This document shows positions 6,143 through 44,517 of a DNA stretch of 44,517 nt, piece by piece. The translations under genes were made by a program, and so were the position numbers. Origin of the DNA: a virus; the IMG/VR virus record IMGVR_UViG_3300028802_000002, positions 1 through 44,517 of that record; one strand, 5' to 3'. Position 1 is the stretch's first letter; each line of letters opens with the position of its first letter. Below the pieces are notes generated by a model, which was given only the letters and a program-made list of their open reading frames with translations, ran no database searches and had not been told where the DNA came from.

Positions 6143-6175
6143 GGCGAGGAGGGAGGCGGGCCGGGGCCTCGCCGC
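6143..6175 (-). promoter_or_regulatory. 5' leader hairpin (GCGGCGAGG...CCTCGCC)
   Basis: The minus-strand RNA reads GCGGCGAGG-N17-CCTCGCC, between promoter P6 and the RBS. The same arms occur at 43818..43854. Confidence 0.5.
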
Positions 6176-6204
6176 GGCTGGCGTCTCGCCCCACCAGCAA
6201 GGAC

Positions 6205-6233
6205 ATTGTACCACATCGCGACAAGCGCGGCAA
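6205..6233 (-). promoter_or_regulatory. Sigma70-type promoter P6 (weaker -35)
   Basis: TTGCCG-CGCTTGTCGCGATGTGG-TACAAT. The 19-bp palindrome ATGCGACAC-G-GTGTCGCAT (6233..6251) abuts the -35. Confidence 0.6.
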
Positions 6234-6302
6234 TGCGACACGGTGTCGCATATTGGACCAAATATAGCAGTTGTAGCGCGGCAGCGTTGCAACCCCCCAC
6301 GA

Positions 6303-6329
6303 CCCCCGCTCGTTGAAAACGAGCGGGGG
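6303..6329. terminator. Strong GC hairpin bounding the GC-rich island
   Basis: CCCCCGCTCGT-tgaaa-ACGAGCGGGGG (11-bp arms). No clear U-tract on either strand. Confidence 0.45.
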
Positions 6330-6430
6330 CGGGACCCGTTTCGGCGTTATACGCTCCTCAACCCGCGTATGGGTGCATTCGTAAATCTTTATATGTTCCC
6401 GCCATATATTCGGAATACCATACTCACTAC

Positions 6431-6459
6431 TTGACACCAGCCCTAGCGCGTGTTAAAAT
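6431..6459 (+). promoter_or_regulatory. Sigma70-type promoter P7 (start of the late rightward operon)
   Basis: TTGACA-CCAGCCCTAGCGCGTGT-TAAAAT, 35 nt upstream of the ATG at 6495. Confidence 0.8.
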
Positions 6460-21500: not shown

Positions 21501-23891
21501 GCGCGATTTGTGCGGGCTACTGTTACGACATATGCGCTTGCTGGAAGTGTAGCGGGCGGTTTGAGGCGAATGGCGGCCCTGACGGGTACGATTACGCTAG
21601 GAGGTGTCGCAACAAAACTGGGGTACGGACGGAAATTCCCAATAACTGTTGGGAATATAGCGCTTGGAGGCGTTGTTACTGGATTACGCGCCGCGCGATT
21701 CGTTCGGGCTACTGTAACACCATACACGTTGACTGGCATTGACGTCACGTTGTCGCGCACGACGGCGCTTACGCACTATACGATGCCGACGACTGTCGGT
21801 GCGATTACGCTGAACGGTCAAACGGTTACGCTGAAGCGTACTTATATTGTCCCGCACACCGTAGGAACTATTACGCTCGGTGGTGTGGCAACGGCACTTC
21901 GAGCCATTCGCACCATGCCTGCTGTGAAGGGCTCGTTGTTGCTGACGGGCGTTGCGACGGGAACACTATACGGTCATAAGCTGACGGCGGTTGCAGGTGC
22001 CTTCACACTTACGGGTGTTCCGGTCACGCTGCGTTATGGCCATGTTGTCGGGGCGCTCACTGGCGCGTTTACGCTAAATGGTCAACCAGTATCGTTGGTA
22101 TACGGATCAGCTAAATCAATACTTGCGTCGACCGGAACAGTAACGTTGGCCGGTCCAGTTACGCGGCTCGTGTATGCTCGAAAATTCCCGATTGCTGCCG
22201 GAACAGTTACGCTTGGTGGCGTTGCTACGATACTGCGATACAATCATGTTCTGCCGGTGTCGGTTGGATCGTTAATTCTGAGTGGCATTGCTACAGCGTT
22301 GCGAACGGCACGTGTATTGCCTGTGACGAAGGGTGCGTTTACGTTCAATGGACAGAGTGTGGCGTTCCGCTATACAAGAGTTATGCCGGTCACGGCTGGG
22401 TCGTTCGTACTAAATGGGTTGGCCGCAAACCTTATATTCTCAAATAATCCGGCGAAAGTGTTGCCGGCAACTGTAGGAGCGATTACGCTAGGCGGCGTGG
22501 CTGTCACGTTCCGTCGCACGGATGTCCTAAAGGCAGTTACTGGAGCATATGCGCTAAACGGTGTTGCAGCAACGCTGCGGTACGATCATCGTGTCGTTGT
22601 CACGGCGGGTGCGTTTACGCTCAATGGGCAGACAGTAATACTAAAGCGTAATTACGCGGAAGTTAATACAGTTGGGACGTTCCTGCTAAATGGCTCGCCA
22701 ACGGGATTAGCTGTTGGACGAAAACTTGTCACGACTGTTGGAGCATTCTTACTTAATGGGGTGCCGGTAGGGTTCCGACGGACGAATGTCGGGGCGTCGG
22801 CGACTGGTGCGATTGTTCTGAACGGTGTGGCAGTCACACTTACCTATACCCAGACGGGGCCAATTGCAAATGCGTGGGATAAGACTAACAAATCGGCGAC
22901 GGTAACGCTATCGAATGGTGATCGGACGGCACGGGCGACAACGACAGCCGGTCAAGGCGCTAAGTCGACGCAGAAGCGTCTTTATGCGACTGCCGGGAAA
23001 TGGTACGCCGAGTTCGTGTGTGATGTTCGTGGTAGTAGCGATTGGGCTTGCGGTATGAGTCGAATAGCTCTGGATTTGACCGGAGGCGCGATTGTTGACG
23101 GCGCTGGTAACATAAAAATCAATAATGTTTTCCAGACGGCTATCGGATCGCTCGCCAACAACGATGTCATTTCGATAGCATATGACAGTGGCGGCAATCT
23201 GTTTTGGGCGCGCAAGAATAATGGAGTCTGGAATAATTCTGGAACGGCTAATCCGGCAACAGGAATAGGAGGATTTGATACTTCGTTCTTAGCAGGTTCT
23301 GGCGACGTGCCGCTGTCGTTTTATGGGTTGCTATCGAACACGCAGGCCACGGTTCGAACCCAGACGGCGATGTTTACGCAGACATTATCTTCGGTAAGCT
23401 CTTTTAAATCGTGGATGAACGAGTCGCTTGCAATTAGCTACACGCTGTCTGCGGCGACAGGTGCCGTTACGCTCGCTGGTTCGCCTACGGTATTGCGCGC
23501 CGCGCGGAAGATGACGGCGAGTGTGGGAACAGTAACGCTCGCTGGAACAGCGACCGGGTTGCGCTCCGCTCGCTTGGGCGCGTCGGCGAGCGGAGCGTTG
23601 GTGCTCAATGGGTTGCCAGCAACGCTGCGTTACGCGCATGTTATGGCAGCCGTCAAGGGCTCATTCCTATTGAATGGGCAAACGGCGTTGTTGCGCCGTG
23701 GCGCTGTCGTGGGTGCGGCGAAGGGTTCGCTCGTACTCAATGGTATTCCGGTGAATTTGGTATATCATGCTGTAAGTGGAGTAAATGTGTGGGGTGGGAC
23801 AGGTTGGGTGGACAAGCCAGCGAAAGTGTGGGCCGGAAGTGCATGGATGCAGAAGCCCGTTAAAACATGGAACGGGAGTGCTTGGGTGTAA
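18579..23891 (+). CDS. Giant multidomain tail or host-recognition protein (1770 aa)
   Basis: Two DUF4082-like modules ('GQTFTT...SPTDNLTVSIY...PVALSASTKYAL' and 'AQTFTT...SPTDNILADIY...PVALSAATKYCL'). One Asp-box 'SPDKGATW'. Two SPRY-like domains ('AGKYYWEY', 'AGKWYAEF'). About 25+5 22-aa repeats. C-terminal 'KPAKVWAGSAWMQKPVKTWNGSAWV'. Confidence 0.85.
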   Translation: MALPVTITGIATAVASVGPFKASVVGAETLYTTNTSASAGLTWGDTASGWASRGQTFTTTTATLVSSVRLSIWKTASPTDNLTVSIYATDGSGLPTGSALGTSNIVVGSTLGSTALTGLNSPTTFTFATPVALSASTKYALMPARSTGLNATNYYNITGQGSSPYAGGNMVNYNGTTYTASSTNDLGFAVYGVTLTDAYYFIGRSSATSTTLQAYKSTDPEDSLVIVDTKASTNAGRAIGFSAANEKAAQTFTTIGAVSLKSFTFSGAKTGSPTDNILADIYLADASDFPTGSSLGQGLIAASSVPTTNSINTITWTTPVALSAATKYCLVVSRSGALSNTNVVSWYGGTGDVYAGGKGSVYVSGAWTTDATTPDYTLRLSTGTESAAWTSIATKTGFTTAIQFISSYQVGNVIHMVITDGSTTSINHKYQTFDCSTDTFVTAETINSALNTTTSTAANSYMTSIVVRSTAEVVVHYSAARISTFSQTAYRRRTGVATWAAGVAVSATGVNTFSPMVVLGASDRLHFLWYNSSNTQQRHLTSANVLGTAASTGAGLLQDIATFIDAGPTVRFVGIGASHAARWSSADNPTVTTVGVATGQPVRIGDTGGVFYALYRGSADSDLYITTSPDKGATWTTGINVFTGTVALADANLSMNQLCYTRGTSVVFPYIVNDNGTLRYNEYSIPQPTADAWNVNDKSVNVDLTNSDRTATANSGTVGGVRSYQTRTNETAGKYYWEYVLVGGTPNFGARALTENLSGASTDSFSVSYNGNLSIGTTPAGSGLFTATTGDVICYAWDTGAEKLYVRLNTGNWNDNSTVNPSTGVNGADASAIAAVPLALAVNFDTTSEAVTLRTRAADLTVANKPSGYTSWMGESLVSVTNYTMPAATGAIVLAGPANKLARSRDFNVDVGAIVLAGIDVVLTKGVAVTHYTMPAATGTVVLGGVTTGLIATRKLSITVGAVVLGGVVTGLRAARFVRATVTTYALAGSVAGGLRRMAALTGTITLGGVATKLGYGRKFPITVGNIALGGVVTGLRAARFVRATVTPYTLTGIDVTLSRTTALTHYTMPTTVGAITLNGQTVTLKRTYIVPHTVGTITLGGVATALRAIRTMPAVKGSLLLTGVATGTLYGHKLTAVAGAFTLTGVPVTLRYGHVVGALTGAFTLNGQPVSLVYGSAKSILASTGTVTLAGPVTRLVYARKFPIAAGTVTLGGVATILRYNHVLPVSVGSLILSGIATALRTARVLPVTKGAFTFNGQSVAFRYTRVMPVTAGSFVLNGLAANLIFSNNPAKVLPATVGAITLGGVAVTFRRTDVLKAVTGAYALNGVAATLRYDHRVVVTAGAFTLNGQTVILKRNYAEVNTVGTFLLNGSPTGLAVGRKLVTTVGAFLLNGVPVGFRRTNVGASATGAIVLNGVAVTLTYTQTGPIANAWDKTNKSATVTLSNGDRTARATTTAGQGAKSTQKRLYATAGKWYAEFVCDVRGSSDWACGMSRIALDLTGGAIVDGAGNIKINNVFQTAIGSLANNDVISIAYDSGGNLFWARKNNGVWNNSGTANPATGIGGFDTSFLAGSGDVPLSFYGLLSNTQATVRTQTAMFTQTLSSVSSFKSWMNESLAISYTLSAATGAVTLAGSPTVLRAARKMTASVGTVTLAGTATGLRSARLGASASGALVLNGLPATLRYAHVMAAVKGSFLLNGQTALLRRGAVVGAAKGSLVLNGIPVNLVYHAVSGVNVWGGTGWVDKPAKVWAGSAWMQKPVKTWNGSAWV
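21219..22850 (+). repeat. About 25 tandem 66-bp (22-aa) coding repeats
   Basis: Unit resembles GAFTLNGQPVSLRYxxxxxxxx. The sub-repeats at 21477-21544 and 21669-21736 are nearly identical (GGVVTGLRAARFVRATVT). Confidence 0.85.
23439..23767 (+). repeat. Second block of about 5 copies of the same 22-aa repeat
   Basis: Follows the second SPRY-like domain and the duplicated junction 'SWM(G/N)ESL'. Confidence 0.8.
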
Positions 23892-31819: not shown

Positions 31820-32893
31820 ATGGCATTTGATGTAACCGGTCCTGATGGGAATACGTATAGAACCGATGCTCCGACACTTGAGGAAGCTATCAAGTCGGTC
31901 AAAGAGCATGTCCAAAAAGAATTTAACACCAAAGAAGCTAAGGATATCGAAGCATCGCCAGCGTGGCAAAGACCGTTCCAAGCTATAGAGGACGTTGCAC
32001 GGGTCGGTGTAGATACCGTAGCCGCTGGAATACCCGATTATTTGGCTGGTGGTGATCAATCAATGAAGACAGCAGCGGCTCGCGATCGCATGGGTTGGGC
32101 TGGTACCGCTTTGGATGTTGGTACGGCGGCTCGGTTCATACCATCGCTCGTCCCCAAGGCCATCAAGTGGGCTGCCGGCGGGCCATTGGCACGGACGGTC
32201 GTCGGATCGACGACGGCGGGGGGTGAGGGCGCGGTCTACGGGGGCGTCAACGCCGCGACGCACGATCAGGACGTCCCGACGGGGGCGGCGCTGGGCGGCG
32301 TCGGTGGGCAGATCGGCCATGCCATCGGCAGTGGCGTCAATCGGATAGTCAAAGCATTTTCGCCCAGCGATATACCCAAAACTACTGGTATTCTTAGCAC
32401 GTCTGGTTTGAAAGCTCCAACTAACGTGCAGAAGATCGAGGCGGCTATAAATCAATCCAATCAGGGTACTTCTGGTCCTCAAGCACAAAAACAAGTACAG
32501 GATAAACTTAAATCGTTAGTGGTAAACGCTAAACCTAAGGAATTTACTCCAACTCAGACTAGCCTAATGAAGAAAGTGTACGAAGGTGATCCGGCCACGA
32601 ACGTATCCAGAGAAGTTGGCGAGTTCCTGAACAACAAATTGTTGGCGGGCGGCGCTGGGATTGGCGCTTTGGCTACTGGAAGTCCATTGGCCGCAGCCGC
32701 TATTGGTGGCGGGATGTTAGCCGGTGGTAAAGTTCTGAAAGGTATTTCGCAAGGCGGCACCGAAGAGGCAGTCCAAAACCTCCGCCGCACTATGTTCAAG
32801 GTCCCCAAATTTAAAGGGCCGGTATCGGAGGCGGAGAAGGCCCGTATTGCCAATATGGTAAAGGTAGGATTGCTGTCGCAACAGGAAGATTAG
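31820..32893 (+). CDS. Gly-rich putative internal virion or membrane-interacting protein
   Basis: Gly/Ala-rich hydrophobic stretches ('LLAGGAGIGALATGSPLAAAAIGGGMLAGG'). Last gene of the late operon. Confidence 0.6.
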   Translation: MAFDVTGPDGNTYRTDAPTLEEAIKSVKEHVQKEFNTKEAKDIEASPAWQRPFQAIEDVARVGVDTVAAGIPDYLAGGDQSMKTAAARDRMGWAGTALDVGTAARFIPSLVPKAIKWAAGGPLARTVVGSTTAGGEGAVYGGVNAATHDQDVPTGAALGGVGGQIGHAIGSGVNRIVKAFSPSDIPKTTGILSTSGLKAPTNVQKIEAAINQSNQGTSGPQAQKQVQDKLKSLVVNAKPKEFTPTQTSLMKKVYEGDPATNVSREVGEFLNNKLLAGGAGIGALATGSPLAAAAIGGGMLAGGKVLKGISQGGTEEAVQNLRRTMFKVPKFKGPVSEAEKARIANMVKVGLLSQQED

Positions 32894-34392
32894 CGCCGCA
32901 TCCCAAAATATGAAAATACTGCCTGTGCTATGTTCTCTTTGGCTTGTAGCGCCATCGTTATTTTGTGGTCCAGCTTGGTCCCCCAAAGATCGATATACAA
33001 GCAACTGTCTGCGATTTGACCGTGGCGATGTATCCGATCTTCTATTTGACTTCTGTCGTCCAGAGAGTATGAGTTTTCCGCAAACACCATTGTGCTGCAT
33101 TTATCGGTTACGTCGGGGCCTCCAAGAAGAGTATGGCCATATTTCCCGGCCCTGGATTGGACAAGAATTACTCGACACTTACTGTCACCGTTGAATCGGT
33201 CTTTCTGTGCTTGGATTTCCTCCGGTTCCATACCGCCTTTGATCCAAGCGGGGTTATAGTCATGGAGGGATCGCTCTAATAAACTGAGCGTGTAGCGGTG
33301 AACGTATGGCACAACTACCTTGCCGTTGGCCTCTTCGATAATCTCGCGCACCAAATTAAATCGTGGATTCGCCTCGGGCGGCACCAATTCCTCAATATCG
33401 CCATTTTCCTTGATAATGAATCCACTTTGGATTTGGGCTAGCTTAATATATTTGGTTATGAAGGCGTCGACAGCTACGTTCTCCGCATCGTTAAGCCAGA
33501 GAACGAAATCGTCTTCCATGGATTTGTACATGTTGTCGAGTTTGAGGGTAAGTTGATATTGTCTGGAAGTGTATAATTTTGGGGGGAGATCGGTCCAATC
33601 ACTTTTAGCTGCCCGGAATATGTATTTTTCAATTTTGGCCGCGAGTAACTCTTCGTTTTGGGTACCCACCACCTTCTTGGCTTTGAATCCGCCCATCTTG
33701 CAGAACGTAGTTTTGAAGGGGAAGTATTTTTCATTGATGGCTCCTATAAATCGCATTTGTGCCCAAAGATCATGTGGCCCTTGGGTTACGGGTTTGCCAG
33801 ACAGAATGCGTCGGTATTTGAACACGTGAGCCAATGCGAGGGCTGCTTTCGTTTGCTGACTATTATACGTTTTGATTTGGATGGATTCATCCAGCACGAT
33901 CATTGCATTGCGGTTGGCGACGAATTTGCGGACGTATAGTTGCACTCCATCCTTGCGTATCGCCTCATAGTTGATGATAAGTACCGGGGGTCGGGTGAAT
34001 TGGGTGTTCATGAAGTGATCGTTAGCCCAATCGTTCCCGGATTCGTAGATGTGGGAGTGAACGTCGATGCCGTGTTTCTTTATTTCATCTACCCATCCGG
34101 CCTTGAACGAATTGGGGCAAATCACCACCAATCGGGTAACTTCCTTTTCTTTGACCAAGGACGTAAACTCCACCAAAGCGGTAAGAGTCTTCCCCAAGCC
34201 CATTTCCATGTAGTATGCAAATCCATCTCTTCGATATGATGCTTTGAGCGCCACTTCTTGAACATTTAGTAGTCCCAAGGTTGCCTCATTTTCAATTGGT
34301 CGTCGTTGTCCTGCCTCCGCAGCGTCACTTCGTGGTGGATGTGCTGTTCCAATCTCTCGTGCCAATTCGGGCCGTATGTTTCCGTCAGCCAA
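32890..34392 (-). CDS. SNF2-family helicase
   Basis: TTG start after a GGAGGA RBS. Motif I 'MEMGLGKT', motif II 'VLDESIQIK', motif VI 'QIEDRIHRHGQ'. Confidence 0.9.
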   Translation of the reverse strand: MADGNIRPELAREIGTAHPPRSDAAEAGQRRPIENEATLGLLNVQEVALKASYRRDGFAYYMEMGLGKTLTALVEFTSLVKEKEVTRLVVICPNSFKAGWVDEIKKHGIDVHSHIYESGNDWANDHFMNTQFTRPPVLIINYEAIRKDGVQLYVRKFVANRNAMIVLDESIQIKTYNSQQTKAALALAHVFKYRRILSGKPVTQGPHDLWAQMRFIGAINEKYFPFKTTFCKMGGFKAKKVVGTQNEELLAAKIEKYIFRAAKSDWTDLPPKLYTSRQYQLTLKLDNMYKSMEDDFVLWLNDAENVAVDAFITKYIKLAQIQSGFIIKENGDIEELVPPEANPRFNLVREIIEEANGKVVVPYVHRYTLSLLERSLHDYNPAWIKGGMEPEEIQAQKDRFNGDSKCRVILVQSRAGKYGHTLLGGPDVTDKCSTMVFAENSYSLDDRSQIEDRIHRHGQIADSCLYIDLWGTKLDHKITMALQAKENIAQAVFSYFGMRR

Positions 34393-34434
34393 TTGACGTC
34401 CTCCATGTGCATTTGGATTGCTATTACTACCTTG

Positions 34435-34728
34435 TCATCTTCCATTGCCCAAATCCTGTAATTTTAGCGCGACGTAGGCTAAAAACGCAAAGTTGGCTAC
34501 GTCCGCTAGTTCTACTAGCACATTGCCGTCGTGCTTGTCTTCGTTGAACTGCAGCTCGAACTCGTCTACCTCTAACTGCAACAAATCGAGGATGCCCGGA
34601 ATATCTCGCGTCGTGGGGGTTTCCTTATGGCTATTCTTGTCTAGCTTTATCATCATAGCTTCAAGGAACCCCTCCAGGAAATCGCCGTATTTCTGTAGCG
34701 ATGGCGGTACTTTGATTATTAGATGCAA
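34435..34728 (-). CDS. MazG-like all-alpha NTP pyrophosphohydrolase (MazZ candidate)
   Basis: TTG start after a GGAGAG RBS, overlapping the purZ-like stop by 10 nt. 'KLDKNSHKE', 'LEVDEFELQ' and 'LVELADVANFAFLAYV'. Confidence 0.7.
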   Translation of the reverse strand: MHLIIKVPPSLQKYGDFLEGFLEAMMIKLDKNSHKETPTTRDIPGILDLLQLEVDEFELQFNEDKHDGNVLVELADVANFAFLAYVALKLQDLGNGR

Positions 34729-35762
34729 CGTGGCTCTCCTATATCAGTTACTTTGGGACCGTAACCGGCCAAGAAATATACTGATTTTGTAATGTGGCGC
34801 ACTGCGTCGTTTAATTCCTCCAGTAGCTCTAGCTGATCCTCCGGTTGGAGGTAATCCATGTGGCTTATAAACACCACGTCGGGGTCGTTAGCATAGCAAG
34901 CATCGTAGAACTGATTGAGGGAGAATGACGCTACTCTTCGCACTCGGTCAGTTACCGTCGTCCGTTCTTCCGGGACGCCAATACTCTCCCAATTAGTTTC
35001 ATGCTGGTCTGAGTACCAATCCCCGCTAGTAAACCCATCAATATTCCCAACACGAATCGGAAAAGTTCGGATTGCCATGTAAGTATATGCAAGATGTCTT
35101 GGAGCGATTCTAGCATCGGCTAACCCCTGCATTACGGTGCACTCTCGGCTAGTCACCTTGGGGTAAAAGTGCGAATTGATCCCGAGGCTGAACCCCTGCG
35201 ATATCTCCATGAAATAAGCGTTGCGCTCGGGTTTGAGTCGGTGGTTCTGAATTACCACATTGGGCGCAATTTGTCCCAACGAGTTATTAGCGATAGCGTT
35301 TGGATGCCGCTCAATTTTCTTGACCAGCGCTGCACCAGTTCCACTCCGCGTGCCCGCTACTTCTGCTATGGGGCCGTGTAGCTCAGCTTGACGATCTTCA
35401 TCCGTCACAATAGCGGCGTTGGGGTGTACAAATATACTTACGCGCGGGTACATTTCGGCTTCTTTTTTAAGTATGTCCCGATCAATAATTGCCCCGGCTG
35501 ACAAGTACACCGGAACATGTATGCCGCGCATCGACAAGTACACGCTGAAGGTAGGTAATTGCTTTAGCACGATCTTGTTATCACCGAAATAGCAAGTATG
35601 CCCGCTATTTGGCCCGCCACTGTAAATGCATCCGTCGAAATTGATGGTTTTGTTCTGCTTAAACGCTTGTTCAGCCAAGTACGCGCTCAACGCCCCCTTT
35701 CCCGTTGAGCCGTACTGGCCGTCCACAACGCAATGAACGCCCTTGAATTTGAATAGCTGCAT
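34719..35762 (-). CDS. purZ: Shortened adenylosuccinate-synthetase homologue, PurZ-like
   Basis: 347 aa. 'DGQYGSTGKG' (PurA has GDEGKG), 'GGPNSGHT', 'GTRSGTGAA', 'EISQGFSL', 'FYPKVTSR', 'FPIRVGN' and 'TTVTDRVRRV'. Confidence 0.7.
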   Translation of the reverse strand: MQLFKFKGVHCVVDGQYGSTGKGALSAYLAEQAFKQNKTINFDGCIYSGGPNSGHTCYFGDNKIVLKQLPTFSVYLSMRGIHVPVYLSAGAIIDRDILKKEAEMYPRVSIFVHPNAAIVTDEDRQAELHGPIAEVAGTRSGTGAALVKKIERHPNAIANNSLGQIAPNVVIQNHRLKPERNAYFMEISQGFSLGINSHFYPKVTSRECTVMQGLADARIAPRHLAYTYMAIRTFPIRVGNIDGFTSGDWYSDQHETNWESIGVPEERTTVTDRVRRVASFSLNQFYDACYANDPDVVFISHMDYLQPEDQLELLEELNDAVRHITKSVYFLAGYGPKVTDIGEPRCI

Positions 35763-35764
35763 CG

Positions 35765-36151
35765 TTACTCCGGAAGTTTGTTGACCGGGATTATAGTAGT
35801 CACCATGTCTTTCAATTTGAGGGACTTGGGATCTACTTTCGGTTCGGGCGTTAGCATCGCGGCGAGCGCTGTATAACCCGCGCTGTCGATGAAATTGTCC
35901 ATGGAATAGCCATAGGTGGCGCGGGCGATCTTCACGAGGGTCATCATTTGGGCCACGTCGTGAGCCTTCAGGTGGAGTTCGTCACGGCTCGTGTAAGCAT
36001 GAGTGATGTAGTTACTCCACAGTTCGCCAATCATGTTGAAGGAGCGCTCGGTGTGGCCGTGCTCTTCCAGACGCTGACGAACAGCGCTGGCGGCATCGAG
36101 CAGGACGGATTCGGCAACTTCGAGCGGAGTATTTTTCAGCTTGGGATTCAT
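35765..36151 (-). CDS. Small all-alpha protein of a family common in phage nucleotide-metabolism modules
   Basis: 'HGHTERSFNMIGELWSNYI...HDVAQMMTLVKIARATYGYSMDNFIDSAGYTALAAML'. Its stop lies 2 nt before the purZ-like start. Confidence 0.6.
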   Translation of the reverse strand: MNPKLKNTPLEVAESVLLDAASAVRQRLEEHGHTERSFNMIGELWSNYITHAYTSRDELHLKAHDVAQMMTLVKIARATYGYSMDNFIDSAGYTALAAMLTPEPKVDPKSLKLKDMVTTIIPVNKLPE

Positions 36152-36154
36152 GCG

Positions 36155-36547
36155 TTATCCTTTGATTGAGAAGTAGTATTGGATCAGTTGCTTGTGGAAC
36201 GGTATATCACTCGTCGTTACCGAGAAGCAATCCGTCCGGTGGATTCTGGCTACTGGTCTGTGGAAATAGTAAACACCATCCTTCCATCCTATCATTACGG
36301 GAATAACGTGGCCAGCATTGCCAGCCGCGTCGTGAATACGTGCCAATTCAATCTGTTGTCTTGGCGTCGGACCGAATATGTGCTCCCTAATCATTTTGAT
36401 TTCGGCCATAAATACCGGCATAGCCAAGGGGATTAGTATCATGTCGAAAGTACCCACAGCGAATTGATCCTCGATTCGCCGCGCGTAATGTCCACTTGCA
36501 TGCATATCTCTGACAATACGCCGTTTAATTTCAGCTTCCGTTGTCAT
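36155..36547 (-). CDS. VRR-NUC / PD-(D/E)xK nuclease
   Basis: 'GTFDMILIP...VFMAEIKMIREHIFGPTPRQQIEL' gives the D...E-x-K...Q layout. Confidence 0.7.
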   Translation of the reverse strand: MTTEAEIKRRIVRDMHASGHYARRIEDQFAVGTFDMILIPLAMPVFMAEIKMIREHIFGPTPRQQIELARIHDAAGNAGHVIPVMIGWKDGVYYFHRPVARIHRTDCFSVTTSDIPFHKQLIQYYFSIKG

Positions 36548-36755
36548 CTAACCCCGCCTGTTTATACCACCATTCGGTAACGGTGAACACCCGCATCCCG
36601 TCTTCCGTCAGGTCGCTCATTCCAGCCACCTGGGATTTCGGCAGCCATACTTCCTTCTTAGCGCCCATCGTGGGGTGTATAAGATAGGCTTTGGCTGTGG
36701 TCACTTCGATGCTTGCCTCTACTTCGACCGTAGGGTCGCCGTCCCGATATGGCAT
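36531..36755 (-). CDS. Hypothetical small protein (74 aa; alternative GTG start at 36848)
   Basis: ATG at 36755 after a GGGAG RBS. 'TAKAYLIHP...EVWLPKSQV...FTVTEWWYKQAGL' is a recurrent small phage-protein pattern. Confidence 0.5.
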   Translation of the reverse strand: MPYRDGDPTVEVEASIEVTTAKAYLIHPTMGAKKEVWLPKSQVAGMSDLTEDGMRVFTVTEWWYKQAGLDDNGS

Positions 36756-36782
36756 TTTAGCACACTCCCATGTCCCTGTCAA
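36754..36782 (-). promoter_or_regulatory. Promoter-like motif P13 whose -10 overlaps an ATG
   Basis: TTGACA-GGGACATGGGAGTGTGC-TAAAAT. The ATG at 36755 overlaps the -10. It sits upstream of the nuclease/purZ/mazG/SNF2 block. Confidence 0.5.
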
Positions 36783-36789
36783 GTATTGT

Positions 36790-37074
36790 TTATCGGCTGC
36801 AGCGCCAACTCTTTCTACGATATACTTTCTTCTTACCGTGACGCTCACATTCGTCGTCGGCCTCTGCGTCTAGCTTGTTCTTTTCGGTCGCGTTAATAAC
36901 TGGAATCTTATCAGTCTTAACAGATCGGGTGGATAAATCAATGCCCCAACCTACCATTGAATTGCCATTTGCTTCGTATGCCTGCACTAATGCATCGCGC
37001 TTTATATCTTCACTTGGAGCATCAACAGCGAAAGCGGGGGTGGACAATAATAAAAGTATAGCAGCGTATCTCAT
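36790..37074 (-). CDS. Small secreted protein (signal peptide)
   Basis: 'MRYAAILLLLSTPAFA|VDAP' resembles a Sec signal with an AxA cleavage site. Confidence 0.55.
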   Translation of the reverse strand: MRYAAILLLLSTPAFAVDAPSEDIKRDALVQAYEANGNSMVGWGIDLSTRSVKTDKIPVINATEKNKLDAEADDECERHGKKKVYRRKSWRCSR

Positions 37075-37173
37075 TTGCCGTATTTCTCCTTGATGTAAAT
37101 ATTAACGCACGGTCCGAAAGGTTCTCCGGTTTCAGTCATAATCTCCTTTATTCTTTCATGAAATTCGTCCGCC

Positions 37174-38967
37174 TCACTCTTCGTAACGGTCGAGCTTGTC
37201 TCCGTAGCTCGCTTGTGCCCAATCCCGCCCCGAACCCAACCCAAATGGGATAGGGACGCTAATTTGGAGTTCTTCTGCCACATGTTCTATATTCCTTATG
37301 AGGTCTTTGGGGTCGTGATTAGGGTTACGCTGCCACAATAAACTGTCGTGAATAGTGAGTAAGATCTGAACATCGTTGGGATATGCATCTTCGTATTTGC
37401 ACGCCCGCAGTAAGCACATCTTGAGGTGCTCTCCACCGACATTTTGTATAATTCGAGATACGGCACGATACGCGAATCTGGGATCATCCAGATAAGCTCG
37501 TCGGCCAAGTAGGGTTTTGACATATCCTCGCCTCTTGAATACTGACACTGCGGTGTCCTGAAATAGCTTGATAGCTGGGAACGCGTCAGTGAGGAACCGC
37601 CTGTGGGCGTCTCTGGCCTGCTCTAAGGGCCATCGCATATGCCCCGCAAGCGTCGGTGGAGACATCATTGTGAGCATTCCCATACCCATCCGCTTAGCTG
37701 TCTCGCGATCTAATCCGAGGACTTGGGAGGCTCTATCATGAATGTCCATTGTACCTGATCGGTATCCATCGACAAGGGCGGGATCACCCGAATAGTGGGT
37801 AAATAATCGAGGTTCCTGTTGCTTAGCATCAGCTTCCTCGATGACGAATCCGCTATCAGGGACGACCAACCTTCGAACCACTCTACCGACATCGATATTG
37901 CGTTTTGGGAACGCTTGAAGGTTAGGTTCACTGCACGAGAATCTGACACCGGCTACTCCATAGTCGTCTGACTTAGACTGGTTAAGAATTGGGTGTACTC
38001 TTCCATTGATATTGTGTGTTTCAACAAGCGGAGCAATAAAGCTATCTCTCGCTTTCTCAAGGCGACGTACTCCAAGTATAGCGCCTCCGATTTCATTAGT
38101 TTCGAGCCACTTTTCGGTGAAGGAAATGGCACCGGCGTCGGTTCGAGCGAATTTGTCGTCGGTGTACCCATTGACTCGATATAGTTGCTCAACCGCTTTC
38201 GGCGACCGGACGTTGAAGCCGGGAACAAAGACTTTACTTTTCTCTTTGATGGCTTCTTCAATTTCGCCTCCTACTCGGCTGGCGTAATCAGGGTCAATCT
38301 TTAGTCCTCGGTGGTGGATTCTTGCGACATAAGGAAGTAGGTCACATTCGAGCTGCCACGGCTTTCGTAGCTCGTCATGGTCCAGAATATGTTGCTGAAC
38401 CTTCCATAATTCAAGCGTAGAAATACCGTCACCTGTGGCGTAGTCGACGACGAGAGGGTGGTCGCCTTCCAGCTTCCAAAACCTGCCCATTTGTTTTCGA
38501 TCAGGTAAGCCACCAAATCTCCTGGCCATTTCAGCATATAATTCATCCCCCTTCTTTGGCGTCACCTTGCGCCTAATACAACAATCATCTAATCCGTACC
38601 CTTGAGTAATATCGCTGATGATCGCCTCGTTGATCATCGTATCTTCGAGCGGACCTTCGAGTATGATACCATGGCGAAGGCATATGCGGAGGTCAAAACC
38701 CAAATTATGGCCAACGGTCCTAAACAACATGCGGCTGCGATCCTTGAAAGCACCCGCAAGCTCATGTTCAAATCCGTCCGCGTCTGGTATGTTTCCTCCG
38801 CCTTCATGCCGAACTGGTATATAAATCGAGTAATCTTCGTTAGTGATAACGTACCCGCAAATTTTGTCATTAACCGTTAGCCCCGTTGTTTCAGTGTCAA
38901 ATGCAATTGGTTTATAATGGCACCGGACAAGATCCAGCGCAAGTTGTGGATTGATACATTGCTTCAT
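37174..38967 (-). CDS. Family A DNA polymerase with 3'-5' exonuclease and no 5' nuclease domain
   Basis: Exo motifs 'IAFDTETTGL', 'GHNLGFDL' and 'YATGDGISTLEL'. Pol motifs 'EADAKQQEPRL', 'RETAKRMGMGMLTMM' and 'LLTIHDSLLW'. Confidence 0.9.
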   Translation of the reverse strand: MKQCINPQLALDLVRCHYKPIAFDTETTGLTVNDKICGYVITNEDYSIYIPVRHEGGGNIPDADGFEHELAGAFKDRSRMLFRTVGHNLGFDLRICLRHGIILEGPLEDTMINEAIISDITQGYGLDDCCIRRKVTPKKGDELYAEMARRFGGLPDRKQMGRFWKLEGDHPLVVDYATGDGISTLELWKVQQHILDHDELRKPWQLECDLLPYVARIHHRGLKIDPDYASRVGGEIEEAIKEKSKVFVPGFNVRSPKAVEQLYRVNGYTDDKFARTDAGAISFTEKWLETNEIGGAILGVRRLEKARDSFIAPLVETHNINGRVHPILNQSKSDDYGVAGVRFSCSEPNLQAFPKRNIDVGRVVRRLVVPDSGFVIEEADAKQQEPRLFTHYSGDPALVDGYRSGTMDIHDRASQVLGLDRETAKRMGMGMLTMMSPPTLAGHMRWPLEQARDAHRRFLTDAFPAIKLFQDTAVSVFKRRGYVKTLLGRRAYLDDPRFAYRAVSRIIQNVGGEHLKMCLLRACKYEDAYPNDVQILLTIHDSLLWQRNPNHDPKDLIRNIEHVAEELQISVPIPFGLGSGRDWAQASYGDKLDRYEE

Positions 38968-39256: not shown

Positions 39257-40078
39257 TCAGAATTTACCGGCTACTTTTTCATCAATTGGACGAGCAGTGC
39301 CGCTTGCAGGTTCGTCCTCAGCTTCATCGTTCGCGACCCAACTACCCTTGCTGAATTGCTCGAACAGTTGGCTGGTGATCGCCGCCCTACTCTCATCGGC
39401 GAATCCAGCCCCGGTGTAGGCAAAGTTAAAGTAGGGGCCTTCAGCCCCCTTTTGTTGCACCGAACTGATGTCGTACACCTGAGCAAAATGAGCCACTGGC
39501 TTGGAATCAATGCGGCTTAGCAGTTGTTGCATCGGCTTGATGCTCGACCGAGTATTGATGATAACCGAGGGCGATAGTTCGGGATAGTCCACGAGGAACC
39601 ACATCATGTTATACGTGAGGCTCGCCGCAGGTGCCGAATTGGAGTCCCCCGGAATACTGGTCCCGAACTGGTCCAGGCCGCTTTCGGCTACCGTCTTCGC
39701 CGTGCGGTAAGTTACCGATTGAGCCGAGCCTTTGGGCTTTACAGTAAATTCAGCATCAGCAGGGTCCCAATGAATCCCGTCCATAGCCCGAGCAAGTATA
39801 CCACGATCATCATTCCGTGGTGCCCAAAGGACATAGGACTTGCGGATGATAATTGGGATAGCCTTGATGTTAGGGCCGAGATTTTCTTGCGCCACGGTGT
39901 GCCAGAACTGACCTGCTTTAGCACCTGGAAACTCCTGTAGTTCGGGCGAAATGGCCTGCATCAGCTTGACGCGCGGAATAATACGATCCGACGAGTCGAT
40001 ATTACCAATCCGTTGCTTACCATATTGAGACAAGTGGGCGGGGACGCCGCCGCTATTCGCTTTGGTTACGTCGTTCAT
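39257..40078 (-). CDS. Putative ssDNA-binding protein
   Basis: 273 aa, with an acidic C-terminal tail 'NDEAEDEP...' ending in Phe, as in T7 gp2.5-type SSBs. Located in the replication module. Confidence 0.4.
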   Translation of the reverse strand: MNDVTKANSGGVPAHLSQYGKQRIGNIDSSDRIIPRVKLMQAISPELQEFPGAKAGQFWHTVAQENLGPNIKAIPIIIRKSYVLWAPRNDDRGILARAMDGIHWDPADAEFTVKPKGSAQSVTYRTAKTVAESGLDQFGTSIPGDSNSAPAASLTYNMMWFLVDYPELSPSVIINTRSSIKPMQQLLSRIDSKPVAHFAQVYDISSVQQKGAEGPYFNFAYTGAGFADESRAAITSQLFEQFSKGSWVANDEAEDEPASGTARPIDEKVAGKF

Positions 40079-40569
40079 TATTTCACCTTTGTGATCGATG
40101 TGTACGTCATGATGTTCGTTGTGAAGGTAGGTGCTGGCAATTCGGTACCCTCTGCGTTTAGCTCCTTAGCCAAAGCGCCGAGCGTCTGGGCGTTCACCGT
40201 CTCTTGGATTACGCCGCCGTGATTGTTGCCGCGCAGCCATTCGAACCCAGCCTGCTTGTCAGGCATGCTTGCTGACCAGCGCGTCCCAAGGGACACCCGG
40301 CCTACGCCTTCGATTGTGGTGGTCCGAATATTGTGCGCCCGCATTATTTCGGGCACCTGCTCGCGGGACAACTTTTCCTCAATTTGGGCGAGGGCCTCGC
40401 GGGCTTCTTTGATTTGCGCCGTTACCTGACGGAGCTTGTCGTAGTGCTTGATCACCTGAACAGGGTCGTTGGTGGCGATCGCCTCGCTGGTCTGATCCCT
40501 TACGGACCCTGTTATGTATACCAAATTCTCGCAGATTTTATTCAATAGGCTTAGTGTCGAATCTTCCAT
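40078..40569 (-). CDS. Coiled-coil protein, Gam/Gp157-like architecture
   Basis: N-terminal coiled coil, then 'TTTIEGVGRVSLGTRWSASMP...FEWLRGNNHGGVIQETVNAQTL', which parallels the Mu Gam layout. Confidence 0.35.
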   Translation of the reverse strand: MEDSTLSLLNKICENLVYITGSVRDQTSEAIATNDPVQVIKHYDKLRQVTAQIKEAREALAQIEEKLSREQVPEIMRAHNIRTTTIEGVGRVSLGTRWSASMPDKQAGFEWLRGNNHGGVIQETVNAQTLGALAKELNAEGTELPAPTFTTNIMTYTSITKVK

Positions 40570-41243: not shown

Positions 41244-43787
41244 TCACATACGGAAACGACTGTTCACGTTTCCGCGCCACAGCTTAGCTCCTAGTAATTC
41301 GGATTCGTTCACACCGAAGTCATCCTCAGTGAATACAAATCGGGATTCTAGCGGCACGCCGATTGCTTCGCTCATCTTATCAGTTAGTGTCCCAATCTTG
41401 TATTTAAATCGGTGAAATCTGCCCCCATTAGTTACCCACGGCTCGAGAAGTCCCGCGCTGTTAAATTCGTCCAGCACGTAGCGAGGCTGGACATGCTTTA
41501 TATGCATCGAATTGCAAACATCAATCACCCGCTTATTAAATTCGGCTGCGGTGAACGGCGCTGATATGTCTAGATCTTCCCAGATGCGACCTTCCTCCAC
41601 GATGAATTTCGCCACCCGCCTGGGGTAAGACATGTTGGATTCCATGATGTGAGAATCACTGCCACTCGACATAGCGACGTTCTCAACGTCGTGGCGGTTC
41701 ACTTTCATGGTGTTGAATATGTGCATGAAGTGCTCCCTTACATCCATGCGGCGAATAAACTGGTTGAACTCGTCAAAGAATGGCTTAAGTGTGATCGCCC
41801 AAATTCTGAATTCCGATTCGGTCTTGTTCATGAAGTCCCTGTCGTAGGTCTTCATATAGAACAACGCACGGTCCTGCGTATTCGCCTGTCCGATATTCAT
41901 ATCAAATCGATTGGAAGCAAATATAACTCGGGCAAAAATTCTATGGGTCTTCGAAGACTGGAACTTCTCTGCGCCGCCCATTCGGTCAGACCGGATCAGT
42001 TTCTTAATTTCGTCAGTGCTTGATTCCGTATGGAACTTCGCCTCGTCTATGAACACAAACATTTTGTTTATGAACGGCTCGACAGAGAACGCGCCTTCCA
42101 AAACTTTGGGCGATGCAGAACCCCATTGGTTCTGAAATAGCTGCTCCAAGAATATGTTGCCGAAGAAAGATTTTCCGACACCCTGTCCCCCCACGAAAAC
42201 AGGTGCTATTTGCTGCTTCTGTCCAGGATTCTGGACTGTCCATGCTATCCATTGTTTCAACCACCTTACTTGGGTTGGATTATCTTGACTTAGATAAGCA
42301 AATAACTGGTCCACCATAGAAATGCATTTGGCGGCCAGCTTGTCATCTAGGTTCTTGGTAGGCAGAATGGGCCAGCCGCGCCACGTGTTGAACATAGTTA
42401 GCGTGCCCATTTCGGAGTCTTGGTCGTCCGGGATAACGTCCCCGGAACGTGTCATCCTGAAGATTGATCCGGGTGGGAAATCAGGGTAGAGATTTCTGCC
42501 GCCAACGCGTCGTCGGAGCGGTGACGTTTCAAATAATTTAAATACAGGTTTGAGCTTGCCTCCAACTTCCATGAGGTCGTTTCGGTGCCGTCGGTCGAGT
42601 GCGGCTCCGTCGTGTGTAAATTCAGAGAGGGTGTAGAATCTATCACGATCGATGTACTTGTCGTCGGTTTCGTCATAGATATAACGGTCCGCCATTTGGG
42701 TAAGTGGGGACACGTCAACCCCTGGCATAAACACGGTTCGCAAGGCCATGATGGATTCGGCACCAACATCTCCCTCAAGACTTGGCCATCCGGGAATACG
42801 TGCATCCGGATTGTTATCGAGTTTCTTGATCGCATCACGGAATACTCTCTTTCTCATGAACAACTCGGGGTCGCTCATTTCGACGCAGATAAACTCCAGC
42901 ATCGATTCGGCTGTATCTTCTGACCCAATCGGGCAGAATGTTCCTTTGGATATACCATCGTTCTCATTAATTCCTTTGGACTCTCGAACCAATCGGGCAA
43001 GCCATCCAGCGACTTTAATAGCCAAATTCTGGCGTCCACCTTCTTGCCAGTGGGGCTGAATGATGTATAAGAACGTCCCAAATGCGATGCCGGTAATGAG
43101 GGTGGAGAATGATACTTTGCGCGACGTTGTAGCTGCAATTTCACTGATGTGCGCTGCTGCTTGGCTTTTCGAGGTATACCAAACCGATACATCGTGTTCG
43201 CCGTGCTGTGTCTTGTGCGCATAAATCGAGCCGGGCATAACGGTTTGGCGGGATTCTCGCACAGTGTTCAGCGTCGCGTTATCTGGAAGCGGAGCCATGG
43301 ATCGTAGCTCGCACTTAAATCGCTTGCTGTTTAGCTTGAATTCTTTGGGTTCAAACTCTTTCATCTGGTCGTAGTTATTCAGATCAGTTTCGTTGAGTTG
43401 AACCATAATGTGAGAAGCTATGCCGCGCGACAATCGCCCAAACGAAAAGCGAGTGTCGATCCCGAGGAACTTGAACGCTTTAAGGATACACGCGTTGTAA
43501 CGTACATCTTCTGCGTCTATGTCAACATCGAGCCAGCCAAACTGTAGATTGAAACCAAGATTGAGCACCCGCATGTCGGGGTTATCAATCCAGTCCTGAA
43601 GATTGGTGTCTCGGAATTTGCGTTTGTACCAGTCCGAAGCAAAAGGATTTTTGCCGGACATTTGCAAGAAAACAGCGCCTACTTGAATAAAATTATTGTT
43701 TATTTGTGCGGTTATTGATCGCTGTTGGTTTATTAGTTGTTCATCGGATTCGTTGAGCGCGAACCCTCCCTTTATGGATTCCATCAT
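41244..43787 (-). CDS. Bifunctional primase-polymerase (AEP) fused to an SF3/D5-like helicase
   Basis: N-terminal 'GWLDVDIDAED' (DxD) with a later His. C-terminal Walker A 'GGQGVGKS' and Walker B 'FVFIDEA'. Confidence 0.85.
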   Translation of the reverse strand: MMESIKGGFALNESDEQLINQQRSITAQINNNFIQVGAVFLQMSGKNPFASDWYKRKFRDTNLQDWIDNPDMRVLNLGFNLQFGWLDVDIDAEDVRYNACILKAFKFLGIDTRFSFGRLSRGIASHIMVQLNETDLNNYDQMKEFEPKEFKLNSKRFKCELRSMAPLPDNATLNTVRESRQTVMPGSIYAHKTQHGEHDVSVWYTSKSQAAAHISEIAATTSRKVSFSTLITGIAFGTFLYIIQPHWQEGGRQNLAIKVAGWLARLVRESKGINENDGISKGTFCPIGSEDTAESMLEFICVEMSDPELFMRKRVFRDAIKKLDNNPDARIPGWPSLEGDVGAESIMALRTVFMPGVDVSPLTQMADRYIYDETDDKYIDRDRFYTLSEFTHDGAALDRRHRNDLMEVGGKLKPVFKLFETSPLRRRVGGRNLYPDFPPGSIFRMTRSGDVIPDDQDSEMGTLTMFNTWRGWPILPTKNLDDKLAAKCISMVDQLFAYLSQDNPTQVRWLKQWIAWTVQNPGQKQQIAPVFVGGQGVGKSFFGNIFLEQLFQNQWGSASPKVLEGAFSVEPFINKMFVFIDEAKFHTESSTDEIKKLIRSDRMGGAEKFQSSKTHRIFARVIFASNRFDMNIGQANTQDRALFYMKTYDRDFMNKTESEFRIWAITLKPFFDEFNQFIRRMDVREHFMHIFNTMKVNRHDVENVAMSSGSDSHIMESNMSYPRRVAKFIVEEGRIWEDLDISAPFTAAEFNKRVIDVCNSMHIKHVQPRYVLDEFNSAGLLEPWVTNGGRFHRFKYKIGTLTDKMSEAIGVPLESRFVFTEDDFGVNESELLGAKLWRGNVNSRFRM

Positions 43788-44095: not shown

Positions 44096-44437
44096 CTAGT
44101 GGCTTGTGTTTTTTCCTTCAATTCGGTTTAATTCCTCGATCAGCTCATCTCTTAGATCAACAACAAAAGATCCAAGCCATTGATCCTTCGGTACTCTATC
44201 GCCTTCTGGAGTTACTTCGCCCATGCGCTGCGACGCCTCCATTATCATACAACTGATAAGGTGTAGCATCGCATTGCGAACATCGGCGGGGTGGGACTTC
44301 TCGCGTTGCGCATCGTCGAGCCAATGGAAATATGAACGCAGTACCTTGTCTATGACGGTGCAAGCGACGGGTACCGCGTCTGCCTCCTTAAATATAGTGA
44401 TCATGTCATCCATTAGCTTGTCTGTTAATTCTTTCAT
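44096..44437 (-). CDS. Hypothetical protein (113 aa)
   Basis: ATG at 44437 after a GGAG RBS, ATGA-coupled to the stop of the 187-aa gene across the contig junction. Confidence 0.65.
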   Translation of the reverse strand: MKELTDKLMDDMITIFKEADAVPVACTVIDKVLRSYFHWLDDAQREKSHPADVRNAMLHLISCMIMEASQRMGEVTPEGDRVPKDQWLGSFVVDLRDELIEELNRIEGKNTSH

Positions 44438-44517
44438 GTTTGCTCCGTTATTTTTGGCTTATACTTCATCTTGGTGTCAATAACCCAATCGTGGCTCATT
44501 TGTTTAGTGTCACCTAC
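44391..44517. repeat. Terminal overlap, copy 2 (identical to 1..127)
   Basis: Verbatim repeat of bases 1-127. Confidence 0.95.

Follow-up and report, generated by a model that had tools for sequence, protein, structure and literature searches.

Phages that build their DNA with 2-aminoadenine (Z) need, in the current model, three components: a source of the Z nucleotide (PurZ), a supplier of dGMP (MazZ) and a remover of dATP (DatZ or DutZ), the last of which explains why their DNA is free of adenine. Here we analyse a purZ locus in which the first two components lie side by side and no datZ gene is found. It occupies positions 34435-38967, on the minus strand, of IMG/VR record IMGVR_UViG_3300028802_000002, a stretch of 44,517 nt that we refer to as the window, and belongs to an uncultured podophage in the group of which Ochrobactrum phage vB_OspP_OH is typical. 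We conclude that it is a reduced Z set, made up of purZ, a mazZ gene of the MazZ-2 variant and a gene for a family A polymerase (PolA), with no datZ.

The Z-clusters of cyanophage S-2L and vibriophage PhiVC8 (Sleiman 2021; Czernecki 2021; PMC8342488, PMC8065100) resemble the window in that PurZ carries Ser where the catalytic Asp would stand, together with a pocket for dGMP's 2-amino group, and in that a MazG-like gene follows purZ directly; PhiVC8 also has a MazZ of this same MazZ-2 variant, as well as a PolA. The window departs from both in having no datZ, in a PurZ without the N, F and N/Q residues that contact adenine, and in a PolA without insertions 2 and 3 of the PhiVC8 polymerase DpoZ, whereas S-2L differs further in having MazZ-1 (DUF550) and in using PrimPol as its replicase. 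PurZ phages "mostly" encode DatZ (PMC12884076).

Z-phages without DatZ are nevertheless known. The PurZ0 phages, such as Arthrobacter phage Wayne and Gordonia phage Ghobes, have neither DatZ nor MazZ and carry DutZ, DUF5664 and DmtZ instead (PMC12884076), and in PurZ0, as in the window synthetase, the residue that aligns with D333 of PurA is Asp. The P-loop of the window protein, however, is GSTGKG rather than GSEAKG, the window has no dUTPase, NDT or DUF5664, and the protein falls with PurZ in our tree; judged by these features, the window system is not of the PurZ0 type. A different precedent comes from Acinetobacter phage SH-Ab 15497, whose DUF5664-DUF550 fusion is described (Zhou 2021 as cited in PMC12884076, PMC8342488) as a dual dATP/dGTP pyrophosphohydrolase, and is thus a single all-alpha pyrophosphohydrolase beside purZ that both supplies dGMP and removes dATP. 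Neither sequence nor profile comparison linked the fusion significantly to the window MazZ-2, however, and SH-Ab 15497 keeps DatZ.

The closest cultured phage is vB_OspP_OH (Wolominvirus OH, NC_070933; hereafter OH), a podophage with PurZ, MazZ-2 and DatZ that was included in a published Z-cluster comparison (PMC8342488). Its genes run primase-polymerase ... PolA, gp29, nuclease, DUF6378, PurZ, MazZ-2, gp34, DatZ, SNF2, an order that the window shares except for gp34 and DatZ: between MazZ-2 and the helicase, OH has gp34 and DatZ (gp35, 183 residues), whereas the window has only a 59-residue open reading frame (ORF). The two phages are 51% identical in PurZ, 63% in PolA and 50% in the primase-polymerase, with no similarity at the nucleotide level, and the nucleoside triphosphate (NTP) donor pocket of PurZ, which has the canonical form N-F-M-N-Y in OH, reads S-H-M-D-Y in the window.

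Absence of DatZ from a closed genome

The first and last 127 nt of the window form an exact direct repeat (1..127 = 44391-44517, a suffix-prefix match to which no strand is assigned), of the kind that assemblers typically leave as an overlap when a contig is circular. This marks the window as a complete, circularly closed genome of ~44,390 bp. Its structural module is SU10-like, with portal, capsid and adaptor genes. No nucleotide-level match to it was found among 50,697 phage records; an ENA contig of 44,531 nt encodes an identical MazZ-like protein. Searches of the window for tRNA genes and Rfam families found nothing.

In none of the six reading frames of the window did tblastn from three or five DatZ proteins, or a DatZ hidden Markov model (HMM), give a match to DatZ, and the same HMM detected DatZ in 21 relatives. 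Essentially every ORF was scanned with Pfam and PHROG, which gave no HD domain (PF12917, PF13023, PF01966), nor any dUTPase (PF00692, DutZ-like), NDT (DmtZ-like), DUF550 or DUF5664 (PF18909). A cryptic DatZ elsewhere in the genome was also considered and rejected, scans for the H...HD...D motif being empty as well. Since the terminal repeat marks a closed genome, the absence holds genome-wide, and DatZ is truly absent. The first-pass annotation of this DNA had noted no HD-domain protein in the window, an observation that is borne out by these scans and strengthened by closure of the genome. Of the three genes whose co-location defines a Z-cluster in the sense of Czernecki et al. 2021, purZ and mazZ are adjacent here and datZ is missing.

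The ORF coordinates and sequence motifs given in that annotation, and the short junctions on either side of purZ, were all recovered from the sequence. The module genes and the SNF2 helicase gene beyond them (32890..34392) all lie on the minus strand.

Distribution of DatZ among the relatives

The gene order PolA, nuclease, DUF6378, PurZ, MazZ-2, (DatZ), SNF2 is common to OH and to all of ~100 metagenomic loci, of which 13 came from IMG/VR, 80 from a scan of Joint Genome Institute (JGI) metagenomes and more from exact-protein look-ups. In all of these loci mazZ is directly downstream of purZ, and the DUF6378 gene abuts purZ throughout the group, whether DatZ is present or not. The co-occurrence of a PrimPol-helicase, PolA and SNF2 with purZ, earlier thought an unusual combination, is in fact the conserved backbone of OH and these loci.

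De-duplication gave 84 unique PurZ sequences, 68 of them informative for DatZ and 16 uninformative. DatZ is present in 21 of the informative relatives and missing from the other 47, in which the whole mazZ-to-SNF2 interval is in view; the gap left where it is missing is clean and usually only 50-220 bp long. In a neighbour-joining tree of PurZ, the OH-like basal branches are DatZ-plus, which indicates that DatZ has been lost or replaced, and DatZ-minus sequences occur in at least 4-5 places, one of which is an entire subclade with the P-loop GSEGKG. Several DatZ-plus members (L009, L035, L040, L053, L054, L057 and L061) are scattered within the subclade of the window. Our trees were built from BLOSUM62 distances with no bootstrap, and the number of independent losses is approximate.

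The remaining genes of the module show no sign of decay in the DatZ-minus phages. Ratios of non-synonymous to synonymous substitution rates (dN/dS) in DatZ-minus pairs are 0.06-0.16 for purZ, 0.03-0.22 for mazZ and 0.01-0.24 for the DUF6378 gene, and such low values imply that all three are maintained by selection. Synonymous divergence (dS) is, in addition, discordant between adjoining genes. Between L056 and L060 it is 0.34 for PurZ, 1.40 for MazZ-2 and 0.87 for the 59-residue ORF, which indicates that mosaic recombination has exchanged cassettes around the slot between mazZ and SNF2. Differences in dS of several fold around this slot are also seen between L005 and L011. The DatZ-minus state is a feature of these uncultured phages, which appear to have been sampled from soil or the rhizosphere.

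The PurZ synthetase

The purZ gene (34719..35762, minus strand) encodes a protein of 347 residues that is assigned as the synthase of dSMP, N6-succino-2-amino-2'-deoxyadenylate, from its PHROG match, its matches in the PDB and its diagnostic residues. Its translation contains GSTGKG, GGPNSGHT, GTRSGTGAA, EISQGFSL, FYPKVTSR, FPIRVGN and TTVTDRVRRV. It matches PHROG 1211 (the PurZ family) at 2.4e-52 and Pfam Adenylsucc_synt at 1e-17, and a phmmer search of the PDB gives PhiVC8 PurZ (6FM1) at 1.4e-42 (149.6 bits) and S-2L PurZ (7ODX) at 1.7e-40 (142.6 bits), against 1e-24 (90.8 bits) for the PurA-like 7VF6 and 6e-15 or weaker (<=58.6 bits) for true PurA. Identity is 34-51% to PurZ proteins and 28% to the PurZ0 of Ghobes, and the neighbour-joining tree places the protein with PurZ, outside Ghobes PurZ0.

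Twelve positions have been reported to tell PurZ from PurA (bioRxiv 10.1101/2025.10.22.683976), and at 11 of them the window protein agrees with PurZ: S19 (equivalent to S14 of PhiVC8), Y17 (F12; S-2L also has Tyr), T268 (T262), I46, P154, P235, Y250, W258, G262, S279 and Y304. The exception is H301, equivalent to F295 in PhiVC8. The substitution of Ser for Asp in the P-loop, to which the first-pass annotation had drawn attention, is confirmed, as S19 of GSTGKG aligns with PhiVC8 S14 where E. coli PurA has its catalytic Asp13; the E. coli sequence in our alignment was entered by hand and aligned cleanly at all conserved motifs. The same Ser is found in all clade members, and the dGMP-pocket and catalytic residues are conserved across the 84 unique PurZ sequences. 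We conclude that the synthetase, as earlier proposed, is a PurZ, and neither PurA nor PurZ0. It is predicted to form dSMP from dGMP, aspartate and an NTP.

In S-2L PurZ the adenine of the donor is held by N305, F306 and Q308, and the amide of S-2L Q308, or of PhiVC8 N297, disfavours guanine through a clash (PMC8342488). A single sentence in PMC12884076 assigns ATP to PurZ0 and GTP to PurZ; it contradicts the introduction of that paper, and we take it to be a slip. The window PurZ lacks the adenine-specific pocket (N305/F306/Q308 in S-2L, N-F-x-N in PhiVC8). Where canonical PurZ has N-F-x-N/Q-Y it has S300-H301-M302-D303-Y304 (window 34851-34865, minus strand), and only Y304 is retained. Over a slightly longer stretch, canonical PurZ reads F-L-N-F-x-N/Q-Y, the window and its whole subclade F-[IV]-S-H-[ML]-D-Y, E. 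coli PurA L-T-K-L-D-V, and PurZ0 L-S-F-A-D-Q or L-T-M-L-D-Q. The Ser and Asp of the window pocket thus match PurA and PurZ0, with the Asp aligned to those of the PurA "TKLD" and the PurZ0 "SFAD" and "TMLD". This altered S-H-x-D-Y pocket is common to ~38 unique clade members. The Asp at this position of PurA (D333) is the determinant of guanine specificity, and the match predicts that PurZ of this clade can accept GTP. The alignment therefore suggests that the clade enzyme uses GTP instead of, or besides, ATP, or that its donor specificity is relaxed.

Other P-loop and pocket variants occur nearby in the family. The GSEGKG subclade is a sister group, made up of JGI metagenome loci (L082-L086, L091, L092 and L098), every member of which is DatZ-minus, and its P-loop, with Ser and Glu, is intermediate between the GSTGKG of PurZ and the GDEGKG of PurA. 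L100 has a GSSGKG P-loop and the donor pocket L-T-F-L-D-Y.

The MazZ-2 pyrophosphohydrolase

The mazZ gene (34435..34728, minus strand) begins with TTG, overlaps the purZ stop by 10 nt and encodes a protein of 97 residues that includes EVDEFE and ELADVANFAFL. It finds OH gp33 at 2.7e-7 and PhiVC8 gp26 at 1e-3 by tblastn. Its acidic residues E53-x2-E56...E73-x2-D76 are equivalent to E35, E38, E50 and D53 of S-2L MazZ and are invariant in sets of 26 and of 64 homologues. An AlphaFold2 (AF2) model has a predicted local distance difference test (pLDDT) score of 90.7. With this model Foldseek returns AF_0060 (2P06) as best match, with a probability of 1.0 and a template modelling (TM) score of 0.58-0.66, ahead of a MazG-related protein and then a HisE domain; no E-value is better than 0.03. 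Weak matches to Pfam PRA-PH are seen in nine of 26 MazZ-2 members, and the whole family numbers 1,916 cluster representatives at E<=1e-3. Homology, invariant residues and modelled fold agree in marking the protein as an all-alpha NTP pyrophosphohydrolase of MazZ-2 type, and the earlier description of it as MazG-like stands.

Fusions of the MazZ-2 domain were inspected as a functional clue and proved to be mostly with homing endonucleases. There is one MazZ-2-HD fusion, in the metagenomic protein P0260 (391 residues), in which a MazZ-2 domain (residues 1-88) precedes a YfbR-like/HD domain of DatZ type (193-289).

The polymerase

The gene at 37174..38967 (minus strand) encodes a family A DNA polymerase of 597 residues with an active-looking 3'-5' exonuclease domain, identified from Pfam, PDB and alignment. 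Its Pfam domains are DNA_pol_A (2.2e-40) and DNA_pol_A_exo1 (6e-9), with no 5' nuclease domain, in agreement with the first reading of the sequence. The best PDB match is PhiVC8 DpoZ (7PBK) at 149 bits compared with 125 for Klenow, a small margin, and identity is 29% to PhiVC8 DpoZ and 63% to OH PolA.

Insertions 2 and 3 define the PhiVC8-like DpoZ subfamily (PMC8599892). They are present in PhiVC8, SH-Ab 15497, Bm1 and PMBT28 and absent from the window, OH, L005 and L009; insertion 1 (349-353) and the exonuclease helices E1 and E2 are similar in length and divergent in sequence, in an alignment that contained no canonical PolA. Both the window polymerase (37174-38967, minus strand) and that of OH (L001 4981-6807) lack insertions 2 and 3, and the OH-like group may, on this alignment, use a polymerase subtype other than the characterised DpoZ.

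A proposed Z pathway without a dedicated dATPase

The steps of the pathway proposed here are all inferred from homology. MazZ-2 would convert dGTP to dGMP, PurZ would join dGMP and aspartate to give dSMP, the PurB and kinases of the host would carry dSMP to dZTP, and the phage PolA would place Z opposite T. DatZ, ancestrally encoded between mazZ and the SNF2 gene, has been lost or swapped in about two-thirds of the group, with the conserved 59-residue ORF taking its place in the subclade of the window. There would be no dedicated dATP triphosphohydrolase, dATP being kept low by parts that every member retains: MazZ-2 would act on dATP as well as on dGTP, and the polymerase would add some preference for dZTP. 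The outcome would be Z-rich DNA, not necessarily adenine-free. We hold with moderate confidence that a reduced module of this kind, in which dATP is limited by MazZ-2 and by polymerase preference, is the best explanation of the locus. The earlier prediction of a Z genome is a reasonable one, given PurZ and MazZ-2; the full exclusion of adenine does not necessarily follow.

A dual activity is proposed for MazZ-2 because DUF5664 alone, DutZ and the DUF5664-DUF550 fusion all hydrolyse both dATP and dGTP (PMC12884076), because MazZ-2 and the dGTP-specific MazZ-1 have different nucleobase-binding residues, and because OH MazZ-2 has 31% identity to the N-terminal domain that is fused to MazZ-1 in phage PMBT28 (PMC8342488).

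A number of observations count against this explanation. No residue of MazZ-2 tracks the presence or absence of DatZ among the 64 homologues, which fits a pre-existing dual activity and equally fits no compensation at all. MazZ-2 could not be established as a homologue of DUF5664 or DUF550, the signals being weak and non-significant, with a best profile-profile probability of 7% and a DUF5664 alignment for which a search for further members returned just two proteins, and no published biochemistry on MazZ-2 specificity was found in the Z-phage literature. PhiVC8 DpoZ prefers dZTP ~30-fold, and does not fully exclude dATP (PMC8599892); the window PolA lacks insertion 2 (helix O, 442-448) and insertion 3 (fingers tip, 473-491), and with two of the three DpoZ insertions missing its selectivity for Z over A cannot be assumed. 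Leaving out datZ lowered the substitution of Z for A in E. coli (PMC8342488). Cultured PurZ-type phages all keep DatZ where checked (38 of 38 from Vibrio, for example), and in general, therefore, DatZ is not redundant. That DatZ and the 59-residue ORF strictly exclude each other, as described below, hints that the content of the slot may matter. Finally, the Z content of the window DNA cannot be read from its sequence.

An alternative is that adenine is not excluded, the DNA being mixed A/Z or Z being partial or conditional, with DatZ as an optional accessory tied to host restriction pressure. In its favour, DatZ is polymorphic among very close relatives whose modules are otherwise identical, the discordant dS of neighbouring genes indicates that cassettes are exchanged, heterologous expression without datZ gave some Z, less than with datZ (PMC8342488), and DpoZ alone admits trace A (PMC8599892). 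All chemically analysed Z-phages, however, are reported to be fully substituted (PMC12884076, PMC8599892). This remains a tentative possibility, and one that overlaps with the reduced module preferred here without contradicting it.

The DatZ slot and the DUF6378 protein

The 59-residue ORF, w59, lies at 34266..34445 on the minus strand, in the position of datZ, and is conserved across members of the DatZ-minus clade. It fills the slot in each of the 37 unique loci of the S-H-x-D-Y subclade (plus L055) that lack DatZ, and in no DatZ-plus locus. When the whole interval from PolA to SNF2 is compared, it is found in 15 of 20 DatZ-minus genomes and none of 13 that are DatZ-plus (Fisher p=2.9e-5), a statistic that ignores phylogeny. 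Ten residues are invariant in the family (D16, W19, Y24, W28, R31, H35, I36, E39, R43 and W57), and dN/dS values of 0.01-0.39 show it to be conserved under purifying selection. Profile searches of Pfam and the PDB gave no match. The predicted pattern of a strand and two helices suggests that the protein resembles a ribbon-helix-helix. Its C-terminus occurs in two variants, ...LKMRxPWDY and ...RSGWYDExARRTGKSAYKLP.

In other DatZ-minus lineages the slot is empty or contains a homing endonuclease or small ORFs that bear no relation to w59, and the 59-residue ORF is therefore not universally required for life without DatZ. A search for remnants of DatZ in the slot was negative: the 500-bp gap of L007 holds an HNH homing-endonuclease insertion and the 59-residue ORF, and no pseudogene. 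The other ORF families that are enriched in DatZ-minus genomes were rejected as alternative-frame artefacts reflecting clade structure. Genes for HNH homing endonucleases, inserted in the slot between mazZ and SNF2 or reading through from it, are seen in L007 (9880-10230, the same as L020), L084, P0116, P0121 and P0127, which makes the slot a likely hotspot of insertion and exchange.

On the other side of purZ, the 128-residue ORF at 35765..36151 (minus strand) ends 2 nt before the purZ ATG. The first-pass annotation placed it correctly and described it as a small all-alpha protein; its more specific identity is DUF6378 (Pfam PF19905, 3.7e-20, 72.4 bits against a gathering cut-off of 27.1). 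It also matches PHROG 474 and 1167, which are labelled "phosphofructokinase". Eleven residues are invariant (H31, G32, S37, F38, W45, Y48, K74, R77, D89, G92 and Y93). An AF2 model (pLDDT 78) gave no fold match in the PDB with Foldseek, all E-values exceeding 1 and no NTPase being among them. BLASTP, hhalign and Foldseek comparisons, the hhalign runs being against DatZ, DUF550 and DUF5664, were all negative, and DUF6378 as a DUF5664-, MazG- or HD-like enzyme was rejected. We found no mention of DUF6378 in the Z-genome literature that we read. The family is common in phages with ordinary DNA, among them 705 Mycobacterium phage records, as well as in haloviruses. A second, independent association with purZ is seen in an unrelated phage, Burkholderia phage Bm1 (L026 6407-7093), where a DUF6378-type gene annotated "phosphofructokinase" lies inside a Z-cluster of order PolA, PurZ, MazZ-1, DatZ, helicase, DUF6378.

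It had been proposed that one of the two small proteins flanking purZ stands in for DatZ. Both, however, occupy the same positions in DatZ-plus relatives, so neither is marked as a replacement; the lack of any DatZ-correlated residue in MazZ-2 and of any NTPase fold match for DUF6378 also tells against the proposal.

DatZ might instead be replaced by an undescribed protein, for which w59 is the leading candidate and DUF6378 or an ORF with no relatives a weaker one. The 59-residue protein could, for example, be a regulator or inhibitor that lowers the dATP supply of the host, or a partner that changes the specificity of MazZ-2 or PolA, and its conservation and its occupation of the same slot to the exclusion of DatZ speak for such a role. 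A protein that matches no enzyme family is, however, unlikely to be a hydrolase, other DatZ-minus lineages manage without it in the slot, and the exclusion could stem from a single replacement that was then spread by recombination. DUF6378 lies against purZ in all members, has a counterpart in the Bm1 Z-cluster and has invariant polar residues that suggest an active or binding site, but it occurs together with DatZ and in phages with normal DNA, and has no fold or profile likeness to NTPases. About 15 ORFs of the genome are without any family match in the Pfam and PHROG scans and leave room for further candidates. Taken together, we consider replacement by an undescribed protein unlikely. The broader proposition that a widespread soil PurZ clade with no DatZ, DutZ, DUF5664 or DUF550 excludes adenine by an undescribed route, perhaps through the 59-residue protein or DUF6378 and maybe with a switch of donor from ATP to GTP, is one to which we give little credence.

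That purZ and mazZ are decaying or repurposed remnants that no longer serve Z-DNA, or that the PurZ-like enzyme has another substrate, seems highly improbable: the donor pocket is unlike that of every characterised PurZ and PolA lacks the DpoZ hallmarks, but dN/dS for purZ and mazZ in DatZ-minus pairs is only 0.03-0.22, the dGMP-pocket and catalytic residues are preserved throughout the unique sequences, and the altered donor pocket is also found in the DatZ-plus L009 and L035.

Other features of the genome

The SNF2-family helicase (32890..34392) is supported by Pfam matches to SNF2-rel_dom (8e-26) and Helicase_C, as first annotated. Its true start is probably near 34275, because its relatives are 461-465 residues long and begin at the equivalent of "...LLNVQE". 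The 130-residue product of 36155..36547 (minus strand) is a putative nuclease by homology to OH gp30 (tblastn 2.6e-12), itself annotated "putative nuclease", and shows a D35...E49-x-K51 pattern. The VRR-NUC label given to it earlier could not be substantiated, as it has no Pfam, PHROG or PDB match and no similarity to the VRR-NUC of S-2L.

An 847-residue protein (41244..43787, minus strand) is a primase-polymerase/helicase homologue. In the earlier assignment as a PrimPol-SF3 helicase, the PrimPol label rests on 50% identity over 774 residues to OH gp22, annotated "DNA primase-polymerase", together with Pfam matches to DUF5906 and a VapE-like helicase. Two adjoining replication-module genes (39257-40569, minus strand) match Pam3_Gp34 and DUF7307 (Pam3 gp33-like), Pfam families named after a cyanophage, and are kept beside the primase-helicase in all relatives.

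Elsewhere, a region of ~2.8 kb (window ~3650-6450) has a higher G+C content (53-56%), overlapping ORFs in many frames and a weak codon-usage signal in every frame, and gave no Pfam, PHROG or DNA match. The motif CTGTCAAGTAyCT, which contains TTGACA, occurs at 2851 and 4758, with inverted copies near 4797 and 6428; these repeats may be phage promoters. In the structural module, a 1,770-residue ORF (18579-23891, plus strand) has no Pfam match.

Implications for the Z pathway

The Z pathway itself is well known, and the present results do not overturn the current model; they offer a natural test of the necessity of DatZ. Three points are new relative to the literature that we found: in one environmental clade it is common for phages to have PurZ proper and no DatZ, DatZ is replaced there by a specific small ORF, and the PurZ of the clade has an Asp like that of PurA and PurZ0 in its donor pocket. 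This last feature predicts a change between ATP and GTP as donor within PurZ proper, and bears on the proposed series PurA -> PurZ0 -> PurZ.

The lineage is natural and abundant, with at least 47 unique DatZ-minus loci and several closed genomes of ~44 kb, in which purZ and mazZ are under purifying selection and no remover is found. Its near-isogenic DatZ-plus and DatZ-minus relatives amount to a natural experiment on whether DatZ is essential. One of three things must hold: MazZ-2 is bifunctional, the polymerase selects, or there are natural genomes in which the substitution of Z for A is partial. Any of these outcomes would sharpen both the pathway and the minimal gene set for engineering Z-DNA.

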